From assembly GCA_963422735.1 (NCBI GenBank), contig OY730476.1, positions 1,728,001 to 1,792,000 on the forward strand: a stretch of 64,000 bases of DNA, in the 5' to 3' direction. This DNA is from Candidatus Latescibacterota bacterium. Lineage in GTDB: Bacteria > Latescibacterota > UBA2968 > UBA8231. Below the pieces are notes generated by a model. It searched no databases. It was not told the origin of the DNA and worked only from the letters and a program-made list of their open reading frames with translations. Positions 1 to 4,559 of this stretch are shown here, in pieces. Positions within the stretch are counted from its first letter, which is position 1. Each line of letters starts with the position of its first letter. The translations under genes and the position numbers were made by a program.

Positions 1-3000
1 TCGCCGCGCACAGCCGCCCTAGCAAAGACTACGCCTGGCTGCGCGGCCCTAGCGGCCCGACCCAAAATGTGGTAATCGGCGCGACCGGGCTGTTGGGCCG
101 CTTCCCGCGCCTCGGTCCAGCCTTGGTTGGTAGCGGCCAAGCCCCATAAAGCACGCGGTGCCCGCACCTTGGTCTCCTCGACCGATAGGCCGTCGCGCCA
201 ACAACCGCGCTGGGCGAATAGACCGCCGTCTTCCCGATAGATCAGCCCGCCGCCCACGTATTGGATCAACTGCTGTTGGCTGCCCCGCGCCCCCGATAGC
301 GTCAACAAGGCTAGGGTCCCCAAGTCGTTGTCGTCGAAATCGGCCTGCCGGTAGAAAGCCGCCACTAACTCGTCGCTGTACATTTGCCACTCGTCCCAAT
401 TGATCTCTTTGGGTTGCTCAGGCCACTCCCTGCTCGAACCCAAGAAGGGATTGAAGGAGGCCCCCGACTGCTTGCAGACCTCAAAGCCGCGCCGCGTTAG
501 CTGGTCGAGCACTTCCAGTGCTCGCTCCCAACCCTCGCGCTGCAGCACCTGAGCTAGCAAGCGGTTGAGTGTGCGCTTGGTGAATAGCCGGCTGCCATCC
601 ACGGCCCCTTTGGTCAGCTCCTCCACTTCAGCGCGACCTTCCTCGGTGCGGCACAGCCGAGCCAAGCCCCAGCTCATGCCGTGATAGTTGTCGGCTATGT
701 AGCGCCATACATCCGCATCGCGCTGTATGTGTCCGGCCACCGACAGCGCGGTTCCGGCTTCGGCCTGAGCTTCTTCAGTGAGGGGCAAAAACACCTCGAT
801 GTGGTCGCCGTCGAAATCTAGCTCCATCAGTCGGCAAACGCGCGGATGGACGCGCACGGCAGCCCCGGCCAAACGCTGCGGACGAAAGGCCACCACCGCA
901 GTGGGCGGCACGTGGCCCTCGTCCACCAGCACCCGCTGGGCACTGTACAGCAGCACCCACGAGCGTGCCATAATCGCGTCTAGAACCTCAGCCGCTCGGG
1001 CTGAACGCCGCGCACGACCCATCTCCCGCTCTACCTGAGGCCCAAACAAAGCCCAAGCCATTTCCTCGGGCAGGCCCACTTGGTCGAGATTCAGTTCAAA
1101 GCCCGAAGCGAGCGCGGCTCGGCCACTGAACAGCGGTCTGGCCTCGAAGTGAAGGAACTCCGGGCGCAACAACGCGGCAAAAAAATCCTCCACCCGTTGG
1201 GCCACCTGGGCCACTGCGGGGCCGGTTAGGGCCTCGGGTGCATCGCTATCGACGACGCGTTGCAAGCGCTCATTGGCTTCGACCAAATCCTCGAAGCAGG
1301 CTCGGATTGGATCGAACTCGGTCCTCGCGGGCAAGGCAACGGGAGACCCCACCGTCCCGATCTGGTGCCCCGGGGCCCACGGGTGCGGCACTAGCTGGGC
1401 CAAGGTCAGCCCCTCGGGCTCGGCAAAGGAAAAGCGCAACTCCGCGCCCGCCAATTTGGCCCGTATCCCGGCCATACCCAACAACTGCTGCAACAAGGCA
1501 AAGCGCGGGGACGGGGCTGGGGACGGGGACACCGGGCCGGTGGTTAGGCGCTGGCCCAGCGTATTGGCGTCGGGCCGCTCAGCTGCGGCCGTGTTGAACA
1601 AAGCGTGGATATTGGCTACGGCCCCGGCCTCACACAAAGCTCCGTAGGCCATCATATCGAGCTCTGGGCCGCCGGCCCTTGCCACCGCGGTTTCCAAGCG
1701 TTCGGCCGCGGTGTGGGTCAGGCGGCCCCAGTACACCCAACCCACGGTACTGCGATAGGGCAGCTTTGCGCCTTTGAGGGTCAGTTGCTCCATGCCGTCT
1801 TCGGGCAGTCCCGCCTCGACTAGACGCGCTTTCAACATCTCTTCGCTGGGTGCCTCGAAAGGCGGCACCACCGCCGGAGTCTCTTCGGCCCGGGCAATGC
1901 GACCCATGACCGCCTCGCGCTGCTGGCCGAAATTGAGCCGCGAGACCATACTGGTGGGACTGAAGATGAGCTCTACCAGCGCCCCATCGGGCAACTGCGG
2001 CATGTCGGCGTCGGGCAGGATGCGGGTCACCACCCCTTTGGCACCGTGGCGATTGCCCATGCGGTCTCCCACCCCGACTGCGGCGGGAAAATTCATCCGC
2101 GCCGCAGCCGACTCGCTGATGACCAAGCCATCCTCAAACGTGTCCCCGTCCCACATGATGAAGGCGGTCAGCAGATTGTACCCACCCCAAAAGTCGGGGG
2201 CTTCGGGCTCGTATCCCGTCTGCACTAGAGCTGGCTCGGGTTTGTTGCCCTTAGAGGCCAAGCACTGGTCGTACTGCTGGCGGAACCAACCCGTAGAGTG
2301 GACCGGAGCCGCTGTATCGGCGGCACTCGTCCACTGGCGCATCATGTTGATGCCCATCAGGGCGCGATTGGTATCGTCGTGTTCGAGAAAGGGCACCATG
2401 GAGGCCGAAAAGCCCAAGATGCTGTCGGGCGCATTGTCGATCCGTTCGAGCTTGCCGTCGCGGATGCGAGCCCCGCGGGCCACTTCGAGCACGCGGCCAA
2501 TATTGGGGCCCTCAGGGGTGCAGTAGGGGCACACTAGGCCGTATTGGCTGTAGGGGAAAACGCCCTGATCGTCAAAAGGCTCGACGACAACGGGGATCAA
2601 AGTCAGCCGCCGCAGATGGGTATAGCGGTCGAGCCAGTTGGTCGCCTGTAGGTACTGCGAGGTTTCCCCCAAGTGGAAGTCGCGCATCCAGGCGTCCAGC
2701 GGCAGCCAGTTGCGCACCAAGTCGCCGTCCCAAGCCAACTGTTCGGGGGCCACCTCCAACCTTTGGTCAATAAAGTCGTAGAGCTGCTCACCCACGCACA
2801 GAATCCGCGCTTGTTCGAGCGCACGCCGGTCGGGATAGGGAACCACGACCCGGTAGTTGCCTTCAATGTGGAAAAGGCCGTCTCGGTCGGGCCGCGGCAA
2901 ATCCCGGTACTCAACCTCGACCGAGGCATGGCCGAGCCCCAAACTCAGTTTAACGGAAAAAGTATAAGGGTCCTGTTGTTCGACTCGATAATCGGCCAGC

Positions 3001-3092
3001 GGCAAGCGCTCGCCCAAAAGCCGGGGCAGTCGCTGGTGGACGAAAAGGTCAAAGGACTCCCGGTGCCAAGGTACGTCGAGATTCAATGTCAT
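1..3092 (-). CDS. Miniature single-chain RNA polymerase beta-beta' fusion-like protein (>1030 aa, 3' end outside window; not in ORF track)
   Basis: Manual translation from ATG 3092 (GGAGGA SD; ATGA overlap with sigma stop) is stop-free to the edge. RpoB-like motifs in order: GLFHIEGNYRVVV, SQYLQATNWLDRYTHLRRLT, YGLVCPYCTPEGPNIG, PFLEHDDTNRALMGINMMRQ, WDGDTFEDGLVISE, GDRMGNRHGAKGVV, SRLNFGQ, TVGWVYWGRLTH. RpoC-like motifs follow: FSGRA..VGLPEEMA, VHPRVCRLMELDFDGDHIEVFLPL, SGARGS. Confidence 0.93.
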   Translation of the reverse strand, partial: MTLNLDVPWHRESFDLFVHQRLPRLLGERLPLADYRVEQQDPYTFSVKLSLGLGHASVEVEYRDLPRPDRDGLFHIEGNYRVVVPYPDRRALEQARILCVGEQLYDFIDQRLEVAPEQLAWDGDLVRNWLPLDAWMRDFHLGETSQYLQATNWLDRYTHLRRLTLIPVVVEPFDDQGVFPYSQYGLVCPYCTPEGPNIGRVLEVARGARIRDGKLERIDNAPDSILGFSASMVPFLEHDDTNRALMGINMMRQWTSAADTAAPVHSTGWFRQQYDQCLASKGNKPEPALVQTGYEPEAPDFWGGYNLLTAFIMWDGDTFEDGLVISESAAARMNFPAAVGVGDRMGNRHGAKGVVTRILPDADMPQLPDGALVELIFSPTSMVSRLNFGQQREAVMGRIARAEETPAVVPPFEAPSEEMLKARLVEAGLPEDGMEQLTLKGAKLPYRSTVGWVYWGRLTHTAAERLETAVARAGGPELDMMAYGALCEAGAVANIHALFNTAAAERPDANTLGQRLTTGPVSPSPAPSPRFALLQQLLGMAGIRAKLAGAELRFSFAEPEGLTLAQLVPHPWAPGHQIGTVGSPVALPARTEFDPIRACFEDLVEANERLQRVVDSDAPEALTGPAVAQVAQRVEDFFAALLRPEFLHFEARPLFSGRAALASGFELNLDQVGLPEEMAWALFGPQVEREMGRARRSARAAEVLDAIMARSWVLLYSAQRVLVDEGHVPPTAVVAFRPQRLAGAAVRVHPRVCRLMELDFDGDHIEVFLPLTEEAQAEAGTALSVAGHIQRDADVWRYIADNYHGMSWGLARLCRTEEGRAEVEELTKGAVDGSRLFTKRTLNRLLAQVLQREGWERALEVLDQLTRRGFEVCKQSGASFNPFLGSSREWPEQPKEINWDEWQMYSDELVAAFYRQADFDDNDLGTLALLTLSGARGSQQQLIQYVGGGLIYREDGGLFAQRGCWRDGLSVEETKVRAPRALWGLAATNQGWTEAREAAQQPGRADYHILGRAARAAQPGVVFARAAVRG

Positions 3093-3688
3093 TGATGTTC
3101 CTCCGGGTTATTAATGGCCTGCCAAGCCCGTGAGATCTGGCGGCGGCCGTGGTGCAGACGCGACTTTACGGTGCCTTCGGGAATGCCCAGTCGCTCGGCC
3201 GCATCTCGCACTTCGACTTGGGCGTCGTAGATCAGACGGAAAACCTCGCGCTTGTCCTCGGACAGTGCCTGTACTTGTCGCCGCAGCCAGCGCTGCTGGT
3301 CGGCCCGTTCCACCTCGGCGTCGGGGCGCTCAGACGCGGCCTCAATCATCCATTCGGGCACTTGGTGCGTTTCCTTCTCCACGGTTTCAGACAGCATTTC
3401 CAGCCGTTGCTCCCGCCGCCTTTGCACAGTGCGCAGGTGAGTTAGAGAAAGATGAGTAGCAATGCGGAACAGCCAGCCAGCCGCAGAGCCTCGACCGCTC
3501 CATTGGCCAGCTCGGTTCCACACCCGCAAGAAAACCTCCTGCACCACGTCGTTGGTACTCGCATCATCGCGGACGATGCGGCGCACGTGGTGGTGGATCT
3601 GCTCCCGATAGCGCTCAAAGAACTGCTCAAACGCGCGGGCATCGCGTTCTTTTATTTGCACTATGAGTTGTGAGTCCGGTATCTGCAT
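3089..3688 (-). CDS. ECF-type sigma-70 factor (199 aa)
   Basis: Region 2 (DVVQEVFLRVW...GWLFRIA) and region 4 (AERLGIPEGTVKSRLHHGR). ATG 3688 with GGAGG SD is preferred over the ORF-track start at 3907. Confidence 0.93.
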   Translation of the reverse strand: MQIPDSQLIVQIKERDARAFEQFFERYREQIHHHVRRIVRDDASTNDVVQEVFLRVWNRAGQWSGRGSAAGWLFRIATHLSLTHLRTVQRRREQRLEMLSETVEKETHQVPEWMIEAASERPDAEVERADQQRWLRRQVQALSEDKREVFRLIYDAQVEVRDAAERLGIPEGTVKSRLHHGRRQISRAWQAINNPEEHQ

Positions 3689-3707: not shown

Positions 3708-3734
3708 AGACGCCGCCCGGAAAGTACAGGTTCA
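3708..3734 (-). promoter_or_regulatory. Putative ECF-type (autoregulatory) promoter TGAACC-N16-CGTCT
   Basis: Minus strand reads TGAACC tgtactttccgggcgg CGTCT, ending 20 nt before the sigma ATG. Matches the general AAC/CGT ECF promoter consensus. Confidence 0.6.
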
Positions 3735-3881: not shown

Positions 3882-4559
3882 ATGAGCCTAACACCAGCCC
3901 AACTCAACCAGTTCCACCGCGACGGCTATATCATCGTCTCCGATCTGTTCACGGCCGACGAGATGGATGCCGCCCTAGCGGCGATGGAACAGATTTTCTA
4001 CGGCCAATCCTTCCAGCAATGGTTGGCCGTTTGCGACCGCGGTGAAGCGGCCAGAGTCTCGGACGGCTTTACCACCACGCACGACCACTCGGAGGGGCGC
4101 TCGCAATTTCCCGTGGGTGCGCCGGCCTTGGACCGGCTAATAGAAAAAGAGACCTACCTCGACATTTTTGAGCAATGCTTAGGCGCAAAAGCTAGCTACT
4201 GCAATGCCCACCTCTTTATGCGCTCGGGGCCTACTGACAAGCGCCATCCCCACAACCCTTGGGAGGGCTACCACATGGACCACTACACTAATTGCCTGCT
4301 GCCGCCCCACGACCAGACAGGCCGGTTTGACTACGTCAATTCGGGGGTGTACCTGCACGATGTCGGCGACGACGGTGCCCCCATGCTGGTCATCCCCGGC
4401 TCGCACAAAGTAGCCGGTCCCGCTTTTGTGCGAGCCTTTGCCCAAGGCAACGCTGCGGGTGGGTCCTTCAAAGACCTGTGCCAAGTCACCGAACTAGCCG
4501 CCCCGGTCCCCGCCACCGCCCGGCGCGGGAGTCTATGGCGGCCATCCGCCGCCTGCTAA
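3882..4559 (+). pseudogene. PhyH-family Fe(II)/2OG dioxygenase, C-terminally truncated
   Basis: LTPAQLNQFHRDGY, HMD, VIPGSHK. The sequence breaks after ARRGS, before the distal His strand. Confidence 0.75.

Follow-up and report, generated by a model that had tools for sequence, protein, structure and literature searches.

The window analysed here is a 64,000-nucleotide stretch of contig OY730476.1 from a Candidatus Latescibacterota bacterium, and it begins with a gene for a strongly reduced RNA polymerase homologue (mini-RNAP; 1..3092), which is encoded on the minus strand, as are all features described below. The first 1030 residues correspond to positions 3..3092, and the remaining 19 codons, with the stop codon, extend 60 nt past the window start and so lie outside it. 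In the genome the full-length gene (L001:1443-4592) encodes a single chain of 1049 amino acids and 116 kDa. The polymerase gene is preceded by a cognate ECF sigma gene (3089..3688; 199 amino acids) with its ATG at 3688, the start codon having been picked from homologues. By their coordinates the sigma stop codon overlaps the polymerase ATG. An ECF-type promoter, TGAACC-N15-GCGTC (3709..3734), is located further upstream as a conserved motif that ends 20 nt before the sigma ATG.

Mini-RNAP is a beta-beta' fusion of about 40% the size of RpoB plus RpoC of the same genome. Residues 1 to ~550 form the beta-like half (1443..3092), as assigned with VIA-align and hhalign, and residues ~551-1049 form the beta'-like half (1..1442 for the part up to residue 1030), as assigned from its own fold and superposition. 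Three Pfam families exceed their gathering cut-offs: Rpb2_6 (E 2.5e-29; 103 bits versus 23.4), Rpb1_2 (E 7.3e-11; 43 versus 25.3) and Rpb2_3 (E 7.5e-07; 29.7 versus 21). The scores against the housekeeping equivalogs are far below cut-off, with 158.1 versus 801.15 bits for TIGR02013 (rpoB) and 76.5 versus 963.5 bits for TIGR02386 (rpoC). Since canonical rpoB and rpoC genes are present elsewhere in the same genome, mini-RNAP is an extra paralogue. All of the mini-RNAP records that were seen come from metagenome-assembled genomes.

The AlphaFold2 model of mini-RNAP has a pLDDT of 93.2 and a pTM of 0.91. The beta half superposes on solved beta subunits with Z scores of 27-31 and rmsd values of 2.5-3.0 over 440-530 aligned residues (VIA-align); for example, residues 1..549 fit E. 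coli beta 22..1341 (6x26_I) with Z 27.6, rmsd 2.5, 520 residues aligned and 28% identity. The beta' half modelled alone (pLDDT 91.8) fits E. coli beta' 19..1358 through its residues 1..499 with Z 27-28, rmsd ~4.0, ~482 residues aligned and 23% identity. In all, about 1000 of the 1049 residues of the predicted model superpose on beta and beta', and the two-barrel fold is retained. Mini-RNAP is a member of the two-barrel (double-psi beta-barrel) multisubunit-type RNA polymerase superfamily, and its chain is derived from beta and beta' by pure subtraction.

What has been subtracted was determined by hhalign comparison of a 63-sequence family profile with E. coli RpoB (probability 100%, E 8.5e-51) and RpoC (99.9%, E 5.7e-33), with the residue numbers verified on the E. 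coli genes. In profile alignments with the organism's own subunits, identity is 33% over 463 columns for RpoB and 28% over 386 columns for RpoC. Low-stringency secondary matches gave spurious long tails and were excluded, and sequence matches are weak at residues 60-86 (E 0.002), 562-589 (E 0.037) and 1021-1045 (E 0.19), which rest mainly on structural ranges. Relative to E. coli, the lobe, beta 706-787, the flap, 15 switch-3 residues and the beta' zinc finger are absent, as are the lid region, the rudder, the trigger loop and the jaw. The missing elements are more numerous than those in the original prediction, which had listed lobe, flap, switch 3 and zinc finger. The beta gaps and the rudder gap recur against the organism's own RpoB and RpoC (flap ~244 residues, switch 3 15 residues). 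A further gap at E. coli beta 1123-1176 was rejected as a loss: it is an E. coli insertion, and no such gap is seen in the alignment to RpoB of this organism. Both barrels and the bridge helix are kept, together with the clamp helices and the catalytic residues.

The motifs on which the proposed lobe, flap and zinc-finger losses were based all lie where they had been placed, within positions 1179-2861 of the window, and each loss appears as a gap in hhalign. In the lobe, GNYRVVV (residues 78-84) and ARILCVGEQL (residues 95-104) are separated by 10 residues, compared with ~300 between their E. coli counterparts GTERVIV (beta 140-146, a weak local match at E 0.002) and NRRIRSVGEM (beta 450-459). 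The junction, residues 85-94 (2811..2840), stands in for ~300 residues of beta (147-449) and has a length common to 62 of the 63 homologues. LVQTG (residues 289-293) and GYNLL (residues 304-308) almost adjoin, as had also been noted, with residues 294-303 (2184..2213) replacing beta ~706-787 in 62/63 homologues; the E. coli motifs PLVGTG (beta 698-703) and GQNM (beta 797-800) are ~90 residues apart, versus 10 in mini-RNAP. Between FED (residues 319-321) and GDRMG (residues 342-346) the 20 residues 322-341 (2070..2129) take the place of beta 815-1062, the 248 residues between FED (beta 812-814) and GDK (beta 1063-1065) in E. coli, and this flap junction is shared by 61/63 homologues. The beta C-terminal helix (beta 1322-1342), which includes RFALLQQLLGMAGI (residues 530-543), passes straight to the equivalent of beta' 105-115 and LTLAQLVPHPW (residues 562-572). 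The joined region (residues 530-572; 1377..1505), whose length is conserved in 61/63 homologues, has no Cys4 zinc site; C599 is the sole cysteine within residues 541-600, and the E. coli zinc-domain cysteines are C70/72/85/88. The claim for switch 3, between RLTH (residues 457-460) and GGPEL (residues 474-478), held in part: beta 1249-1263 is unmatched, but the element is really a shortened and variable loop (residues 467-473; 1674..1694) rather than a missing one, with a length range of 25-78 residues and 43/63 homologues no more than 3 residues off the median.

The clamp coiled coil is kept, as proposed, in the form of two helices (residues 591-615 and 620-641; 1170..1322) that are seen in the AlphaFold2 model, match beta' 264-311 in hhalign and include FEDLVEANERLQRVVDSDAPE (residues 600-620) and AQRVEDFF (residues 631-638). 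It is followed by the rudder junction (residues 642-647; 1152..1169), where hhalign shows beta' 312-338 cut to a few residues and whose length is common to 59/63 homologues. The bridge-helix equivalent, identified from the model and the alignments, is helix 971-999 (96..182), after which the beta' C-terminal segment follows directly, without trigger loop or jaw. Neither of the two outcomes that would have counted against the original prediction (a model that fails to fold into two double-psi barrels, or junctions that cut through conserved secondary structure and differ at random among homologues) was observed. The 10-residue blocks into which the junctions fall have mean pLDDT values of 84-98, and 61-62 of the 63 homologues agree in length at the four main junctions (lobe, beta 706-787, flap and the connection of the beta C-terminus to the beta' HPW motif). 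The dN/dS ratio is 0.16-0.19 in 10/10 pairs over the whole gene length. The proposal of streamlining rather than decay is borne out by these data, which support the view that the losses are ancestral and selected.

The active site is largely retained. In the catalytic DFDGD motif (residues 759-763; 804..818) the Asp triad is kept in 59 (D759), 61 (D761) and 60 (D763) of the 63 homologues. R243, D321, R348, H349, K352, R385 and H460, equivalent in the same order to beta R678, D814, R1069, H1070, K1073, R1106 and H1237, show conservation of 90% or more, up to invariance. The equivalent of beta' N458 varies across the 63 homologues (N in 31, D in 16, E in 11). Several features count against an active, sigma-dependent enzyme. 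The equivalent of beta K1065 is R344, those of beta' R425 and N458 are S717 and E757 in this genus, and there is a 10-residue low-confidence insertion at residues 719-728. Moreover, canonical enzymes that lose the trigger loop, the lid and the rudder are severely impaired in catalysis and in the stability of their complexes.

The sigma gene product contains regions 2 and 4 only (Sigma70_r2, E 3.8e-15; Sigma70_r4_2, E 5.3e-13) and scores above the TIGR02937 cut-off (97.2 versus 42.9 bits), which identifies it as an ECF (group 4) sigma-70 factor. Its sigma2-sigma4 linker contains an invariant P111 and W113. Upstream of the sigma gene the family promoter has the form TGAAC-N16-G(C/T)GTC, with a -35-like TGAAC and a -10-like G(C/T)GTC. 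Of 69 distinct upstream regions 60 contain it, compared with none of 69 control windows, and the spacer is 16 nt long in 59 of the 60. The original prediction had suggested that mini-RNAP might hold sigma region 2 without positioning region 4 at a -35 element. This is not supported in that form, because region 4 of the partner sigma is normal by Pfam and its promoter has a conserved -35-like TGAAC. The conservation of this element together with the 16-nt spacer argues against an unused region 4 and indicates its use at least at the sigma factor's own promoter. No wider regulon was evident for this motif in the genomes searched. In this genome TGAACC-N15-G(C/T)GTC has 4 matches, compared with 1-9 for scrambled or re-spaced controls, and of 16 matches to a looser pattern only the cassette's own site is convincing. 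In the 168 genomes of the phylum 22 of the 31 strict matches are cassette promoters; 9 lie elsewhere, no more than expected from a reversed control, which gave 12.

A cognate ECF sigma gene that precedes the polymerase gene in nearly all loci and in several phyla, together with its conserved promoter, goes beyond what had been predicted. A sigma-like sequence lies immediately upstream of the polymerase in 29/30 loci (2 of the 29 being truncated) and in 20/20 loci examined over a wide region, and in cross-phylum loci sigma is directly upstream in 68/77, with a further 7 in which it lies within ~2 kb. In all, 472 related stretches were found, representing several hundred sigma-polymerase pairs. 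Of the 62 sigma-bearing genomes in the phylum, 61 also have the polymerase; in the sole exception the sigma gene is no more than 400 nt from its contig end. The promoter, sigma gene and polymerase gene form a conserved cassette in several phyla. Open frames of 1180-1238 amino acids at three loci were considered as sigma-polymerase fusions and rejected, as sigma and polymerase are in different frames. None of the best 120 or best 150 homologues listed is of fusion length (the longest is 1101 amino acids, except for one protein of 2246).

Canonical enzymes dock sigma region 2 on the clamp coiled coil. Prediction of the sigma-polymerase complex from custom-built alignments gave a score of 0.44, the best of 3 controls giving 0.00, which is weak support. 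The mark was reached by 58 of 80 solved complexes and by 2 of 110 mismatched pairs; with scores of 0.60 or less, only 7 of those 80 reached it, as did both of the mismatches that passed. Agreement between the runs extends to 35% or more of the contacts, and the partner has a pLDDT of 67 or more. The pass may reflect mere likeness, since RNAP-ECF sigma complexes have already been solved. Counting against sigma docking, R275, E295 and A302 of E. coli, which we take to be clamp-helix contacts to sigma, align with A606, A626 and R633.

Neither mini-RNAP nor the sigma factor contains an anti-sigma domain (Pfam), and the polymerase gives only RNA polymerase families at E values up to 1. The polymerase gene, directly downstream of sigma with overlapping stop and start codons, occupies the position of an anti-sigma gene with no anti-sigma family in either protein and no conserved third gene. 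These features, the kept clamp helices and the low but control-exceeding complex score could be accommodated by a sigma-sequestering decoy, in which region 2 is held on the clamp helices, autoregulation is damped and catalysis is irrelevant. Sequestration had been offered in the original prediction, and in its pure form it leaves unexplained the near-invariant catalytic residues (the Asp triad and the equivalents of beta K1073, R1106, H1237, R678 and D814). A chain of 1049 residues with conserved substrate-binding residues, both barrels and the bridge helix, and with such a low dN/dS, also exceeds what a sigma trap needs. Sequestration is therefore disfavoured, and we regard a decoy of this kind as highly improbable.

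Mini-RNAP has a patchy, accessory distribution, occurring in 66 of the 168 phylum genomes and, within the genus, in 21 of 30. Apart from the sigma gene, no conserved neighbours were found in the 20 wide loci; some lineages have an ABC exporter gene inserted between the sigma and polymerase genes, and BlaI/BlaR1-like pairs lie downstream in 3/20 loci. One sequencing run, guessed to be of RNA, yielded four short contigs on the mini-RNAP gene with unrelated loose ends, which speaks neither for nor against expression. The patchiness, the presence of the cassette in several phyla and the exporter and BlaI/BlaR1-like genes would suit a spare or decoy polymerase used when RNAP-targeting antibiotics or phage inhibitors attack the housekeeping enzyme, one without the domains to which such agents bind (the jaw, the flap, the trigger loop and some of the switch region). 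However, these neighbours are not conserved, and housekeeping transcription cannot be taken over by a single ECF sigma for which only one promoter is detectable. No PADLOC-DB 2.0 defence family matches the polymerase, and the sigma factor has one weak match (E 0.00047), on its helix-turn-helix part. Searches of phage and plasmid collections returned only canonical rpoB/rpoC, with at least 80% query cover in 0/38 and 0/68 records, respectively, and matches in PHROGs are only to full-size beta and beta' families. A role as a spare polymerase is accordingly unlikely.

On balance, we lean towards mini-RNAP being a putatively active, sigma-dependent minimal RNA polymerase. We propose that it arose from beta and beta' by fusion and by the removal of every peripheral module, and that it works with the ECF sigma encoded immediately upstream. 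Sigma region 2 would bind the retained clamp helices, and the holoenzyme would melt and transcribe TGAAC-N16-G(C/T)GTC promoters, at least the cassette's own. Slower and less accurate synthesis, with poor separation of RNA from template, would be expected of an enzyme that has no flap, lid, rudder, zinc finger, trigger loop or jaw. That so reduced an enzyme can still be processive has a precedent in YonO (PMC5467207).

The conserved catalytic residues would also fit a polymerase that is active but makes no contact with sigma. Here sigma on the host core would merely switch the operon on, and the host core may indeed read the cassette promoter, since its canonical ECF geometry with fixed -35/-10 spacing suits a holoenzyme with flap-bound region 4. 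Mini-RNAP might then work alone, like YonO, which needs no known sigma (PMC5467207), or act on another template, for example as a primase-like, R-loop-forming or RNA-templated enzyme or one altered in sugar choice. The complete absence of RNA-peeling and exit-channel elements, the variable N458 equivalent and the low complex score fit such an enzyme. They must be set against a clamp coiled coil kept at high confidence where every neighbouring clamp element has been removed, a sigma gene that is without the polymerase in only one sigma-bearing genome, a pair that stays together across phyla and an unusually conserved sigma linker. We consequently judge sigma-independent activity to be a minority possibility.

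If sigma-dependent activity is correct, mini-RNAP is a natural experiment that defines the minimal beta/beta' set for promoter recognition, melting and RNA synthesis. More tentatively, and with somewhat less than an even chance in our judgement, promoter, sigma and polymerase may constitute a self-contained two-gene orthogonal system that moves between phyla, built on the smallest sigma-dependent cellular-type RNA polymerase and initiating at -35/-10 promoters without flap, zinc finger, lid, rudder or trigger loop. Sigma region 4 would then be positioned unlike in any solved holoenzyme. Several phyla include bacteria that maintain, besides the normal enzyme, a radically reduced polymerase that is a compact, single-gene and confidently modelled object for work on the structure and mechanism of initiation and that could seed small orthogonal expression systems.

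No description of the mini-RNAP family was found in a full-text literature search, and none of six polymerase-subunit terms occurs in the body of the ECF re-classification paper (PMC7826278); its supplementary group-wise neighbour tables may bear on this. The closest known relatives are the bacterial beta and beta' subunits, including natural fusions (NF007172, NF011417), with which mini-RNAP shares the fold, the active site and the beta-then-beta' order. The fused beta/beta' NCBIfam models match it at E 1e-43 and 1e-39, and identity is 28-33% to bacterial beta and 23-28% to beta'. Unlike these enzymes, it is an accessory paralogue of ~40% length with its own sigma and with the peripheral modules missing. 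Orf6 of the yeast killer plasmid pGKL2 is an extremely simplified Rpb2::Rpb1 fusion of 982 amino acids that is described as biochemically uncharacterised (PMC2919709). It resembles mini-RNAP in nearly equal size and in the fusion of the two large subunits, but it is encoded on a eukaryotic cytoplasmic plasmid, derives from Rpb2/Rpb1 and has no sigma.

YonO, from the SPbeta prophage of Bacillus subtilis, is an active, processive single chain without trigger-loop homology, and according to its authors the flap, lid, zipper, rudder and lobe seem dispensable in vitro under mild conditions (PMC5467207). Like mini-RNAP, it is a ~100 kDa single-chain homologue of multisubunit enzymes that lacks the trigger loop and peripheral nucleic-acid-handling domains. 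In contrast, YonO is very distant from multisubunit enzymes, prophage-borne and without a known sigma partner, whereas mini-RNAP is plainly derived from bacterial beta/beta', chromosomal and tied to an ECF sigma. No Bacillus phage is among the 12 records listed of the 38 from the phage collection. The likeness to YonO is one of design (a single chain with both barrels) and is not evidence for common descent. In organization the cassette is most like ECF sigma/anti-sigma operons, with an autoregulated GAAC...CGTC promoter, sigma first and a translationally coupled second gene, but this second gene encodes a polymerase homologue in place of an anti-sigma domain.

The mini-RNAP, a single β-β′ fusion chain, is encoded on the minus strand by an open reading frame that occupies window positions 3..3092 and runs off the window start; genome sequence beyond the window gives the complete frame of 1049 residues (L001:1443-4592, a fetched locus of the window's own genome). 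The chain matches the Pfam models Rpb2 domain 6 (E 2.5e-29), Rpb1 domain 2 (E 7.3e-11) and Rpb2 domain 3 (E 7.5e-07), and the NCBIfam rpoB, rpoC and fused β/β′ models with scores far under their equivalog cut-offs. Normal rpoB (open frame of 1271 aa) and rpoC (1373 aa) genes are located ∼1.56 Mb away in the same genome and the mini-RNAP, which is ∼40% of the size of this housekeeping pair, is therefore an extra paralogue. The database names of the members seen are 'hypothetical protein' and, in the ESM Atlas, 'DNA-directed RNA polymerase family protein'. In this genome the cassette (promoter, sigma and mini-RNAP) has PhyH-type dioxygenase genes on both sides, at window 3882-4559 (plus strand, divergent from the sigma promoter region) and L001:592-1440.

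A profile of 63 mini-RNAP family members (A1) was aligned to E. coli β (probability 100%, E 8.5e-51) and β′ (99.9%, E 5.7e-33), with residue numbers checked against the E. coli rpoB-rpoC sequences. The original prediction was of domain-wise deletions, and the motifs that it named are all found in the mini-RNAP where it placed them. The lobe is lost, as GNYRVVV (78-84, equivalent by a weak local match, E 0.002, to E. coli β GTERVIV 140-146) and ARILCVGEQL (95-104, β 451-460) are ∼300 residues apart in E. coli β versus 10 in the mini-RNAP. Likewise, LVQTG (289-293, β 699-703) and GYNLL (304-308, about β 797-801), which flank the β 706-787 junction, are separated by ∼90 residues in E. coli versus 10, and across the missing flap the distance from FED (319-321, β 812-814) to GDRMG (342-346, β 1063-1067) is 248 versus 20 residues. 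The β C-terminal helix (530-550, β 1322-1342) joins LTLAQLVPHPW (562-572, β′ 105-115) without the Cys4 cluster of the β′ zinc finger (C70, C72, C85 and C88 in E. coli), the only cysteine within residues 541-600 being C599. The clamp helices are kept, with model helices 591-615 and 620-641 aligning with the clamp coiled coil (β′ 264-311). For switch 3 the proposal needs amendment, since β 1249-1263 is indeed unmatched between ERLETAVARA and GGPEL, but the loop is shortened and variable rather than cleanly excised. The β gaps recur against the organism's own RpoB (33% identity, 463 columns; ∼244 residues for the flap and 15 for switch 3), and a gap at the rudder (β′ 312-338) recurs against its RpoC (28% identity, 386 columns). 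A gap at E. coli β 1123-1176 was rejected as a mini-RNAP loss, as it reflects an E. coli insertion.

Besides the rudder, absences beyond those predicted comprise β about 580-607 and 618-653, most of β′ 1-104 and 133-263, which we take to hold the zipper, zinc-binding domain and lid region, and parts of β′ 537-587 and 651-709. Everything is absent between the bridge helix (model helix 971-999, β′ about 769-805) and the β′ C-terminal segment, and thus the trigger loop, jaw and second zinc site are gone. Residues 1021-1045 resemble β′ 1330-1354, weakly by sequence (E 0.19) and with support from structure.

An AlphaFold2 model built from the 63-sequence alignment has a mean pLDDT of 93.2 and a pTM of 0.91, with values <50 only at residues 721-727, and folds into a two-barrel core as anticipated. 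Its best Foldseek matches are RNA polymerase β and β′ chains (E down to 8.1e-23). With VIA-align, residues 1-549 superpose on whole β/Rpb2 chains (Z 27-31, rmsd 2.5-3.0 Å, 440-530 residues aligned), for example 520 residues on E. coli 6x26_I residues 22-1341 at 28% identity. The β′ half folded alone (pLDDT 91.8) aligns with E. coli β′ 19-1358 at Z 27-28 and 23% identity, with an rmsd of about 4.0 Å over ∼482 of its 499 residues. By these alignments of both halves ∼1000 of the 1049 modelled residues can be matched to the canonical subunits, and the predicted enzyme is a pure subtraction with no added domain.

The catalytic aspartates of DFDGD (759, 761 and 763) are kept in 59/63, 61/63 and 60/63 sequences, respectively, and R243, D321, R348, H349, K352, R385 and H460, which map to β R678, D814, R1069, H1070, K1073, R1106 and H1237, are either invariant or conserved at 90% or more. 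The mini-RNAP is a minimal two-barrel core that is confidently modelled, is under selection and has its catalytic centre intact. The window's genus departs from the family at several positions: S717 at the β′ R425 equivalent (R in 45/63 sequences), followed by a 10-residue insertion (719-728; residues 717-728 are window 909-941) that overlaps the low-confidence stretch of the model, E757 (window about 820-824) at the β′ N458 equivalent (N 31, D 16 and E 11 of 63), and R344 at the K1065 equivalent. R425 and N458 are residues that recognise the NTP sugar, and substrate choice or activity in this genus may differ from that in the rest of the family.

A word-indexed search gave 753 relatives. An exhaustive search gave 7862 proteins with E ≤ 0.001, of which 319 have E ≤ 1e-30, and both sets include many full-length proteins of ∼950-1100 residues down to ∼35% identity. 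Junction lengths, counted as residues between flanking conserved anchors in the 63-sequence alignment, are within 3 of the median in 62 homologues for the lobe and the β 706-787 junction, in 61 for the flap and the β C-terminus to β′ HPW junction, in 59 for the rudder and in 43 for the switch-3 loop. In pairwise comparison with ten relatives from its genus, the gene has a dN/dS of 0.16-0.19. The deletions are ancestral in this family, and purifying selection acts on the gene. Deletion endpoints are common to homologues rather than randomly different, and the shared junction lengths and the dN/dS values support streamlining over decay.

The mini-RNAP is inseparable from a single ECF sigma and a single promoter. 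The gene directly upstream encodes a 199-residue ECF sigma (Sigma70_r2 and r4_2; TIGR02937 97.2 bits versus a cut-off of 42.9), its start fixed from homologues as the ATG at window 3688, and by coordinates its stop overlaps the start codon (ATG) of the polymerase gene. Immediately upstream of the polymerase, sigma-like sequence is present in 29/30 phylum loci (truncated in two of the 29; the remaining locus has none) and a same-strand sigma is upstream in 20/20 wider loci, with an ABC transporter gene intervening in one; these 20 revealed no other conserved neighbour. Within the phylum, the polymerase is present in 66/168 genomes (21/30 of the genus) and the sigma orthologue in 62, 61 of which also have the polymerase. 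A scan of 185,579 species genomes gave 472 related stretches, of which the best 80 include record titles from Latescibacterota, Poribacteria, Chloroflexota (several classes), Planctomycetota, Armatimonadota, Hydrogenedentota and Gemmatimonadota. Among these 80, 77 loci have enough flank, with the sigma directly upstream in 68, 1.3-2.1 kb upstream in seven and not seen in two.

Some lineages have a gene between sigma and polymerase (L102:662-2455, L048:5002-6759, L103:1283-2425), which encodes a fused ABC exporter (∼590 aa) in two of the loci examined and a 381-aa protein of no clear family in another. A collinear gene pair precedes the sigma in 4/20 wide loci (L042:10841-12711, with equivalents in L046, L047 and L054), one member (317-352 aa) carrying a C4 zinc finger of the DksA/TraR type at its N-terminus and the other matching no family; proteins of the DksA type bind to the secondary channel of the polymerase. 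In 3/20 wide loci a BlaI-like repressor and a BlaR1-M56/TonB_C protein are directly 3′ of the polymerase (L046:11217-15520, L047:4060-6887, L054:10391-12798). Three loci (L028, L015 and L027) hold decaying or incomplete cassettes: a polymerase without its first 93 residues beside no more than a remnant of the sigma, a sigma truncated to 123 aa, and a flank with no sigma. In a genome with two cassette copies, ISL3 transposase genes lie close to each copy (L043:165-1439 and another two ORFs in L044), and a recombinase fragment adjoins the polymerase gene at L045:6490-6930, which hints at mobility.

An ECF-type promoter, TGAACCTGTACTTTCCGGGCGGCGTC, is located at window 3709-3734 (minus strand), ending 20 nt before the sigma ATG. 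The pattern TGAAC-N15-17-G(C/T)GTC occurs across phyla in 60/69 distinct regions upstream of the sigma, with a 16-nt spacer in 59 of the 60, and in 0/69 same-sized windows inside genes. The window site and the equivalent place in loci L077-L139 give the family consensus TGAACcTtt...CGGtGTC, also with a 16-nt spacer. In a strict form the pattern has 31 places in 30/168 phylum genomes, 22 of them being promoters of the cassettes themselves, at one per genome, and the cassette promoter is usually the sole strict copy that a genome carries. The nine elsewhere are not above the 12 from a reversed control, and the window's own genome yielded no second site that was convincing. Given no excess away from cassettes, the cassette itself is the only clear target of the sigma.

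We propose that the sigma would dock on the retained clamp coiled coil, the sigma2-docking element, and that the two proteins would form a minimal holoenzyme. The original prediction was that the enzyme might bind sigma region 2 without placing region 4 at a −35 element, in keeping with either sigma sequestration or non-canonical initiation. The place of the gene in the operon fits sequestration, but the conserved catalytic residues are left unexplained by it, and neither the region 4 inference nor sequestration is supported. Complex prediction of residues 250-1049 with the sigma, using custom alignments for both proteins, weakly supports the pairing: the score is 0.44 (best of three controls 0.00), in a range (≤0.60) where the mark was reached by only 7/80 solved complexes and by both passing mismatches, against 58/80 and 2/110 mismatched pairs overall. 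At least 35% of contacts are shared between runs, with partner pLDDT of at least 67; because complexes of RNAP with ECF sigmas have been solved, the pass may stem from likeness alone. The linker between sigma2 and sigma4 shows unusual conservation (P111 and W113 invariant), as would suit a specific route through the reduced enzyme. Against a minimal holoenzyme, the strongest argument is that the −35/−10 geometry of the promoter is fixed and canonical while the flap is gone. In known holoenzymes this geometry depends on region 4 at the flap tip, and the host core may therefore read the cassette promoter instead of the mini enzyme.

The mini-RNAP family was not found in phage or plasmid collections, has no match among known defence families and yielded no description in full-text literature searches; none of six polymerase-subunit terms occurs in the main text of the ECF re-classification paper. 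In the ESM Atlas, other clusters of 1221-1787 aa combine Rpb2_6 with Rpb1_2 in a single chain, and a further cluster of 1164 aa carries no common family; reduced fused polymerases may thus have arisen as several independent families. The nearest known systems are canonical β/β′, including full-length natural fusions, YonO and the yeast killer plasmid Rpb2::Rpb1 fusion. YonO, from the SPβ prophage of Bacillus subtilis, is described as a single chain of similar size with no trigger-loop homology that is an efficient, processive RNA polymerase, and its authors note that under mild conditions in vitro the flap, lid, zipper, rudder and lobe appear not to be required (PMC5467207). The killer plasmid fusion has 982 residues (PMC2919709). 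Like the canonical subunits and their full-length fusions, the mini-RNAP is of bacterial β/β′ descent, but it is radically reduced and sigma-linked. Unlike YonO it is plainly derived from bacterial β/β′, and in contrast to both YonO and the killer plasmid enzyme this polymerase of bacterial origin is chromosomal and linked to a sigma.
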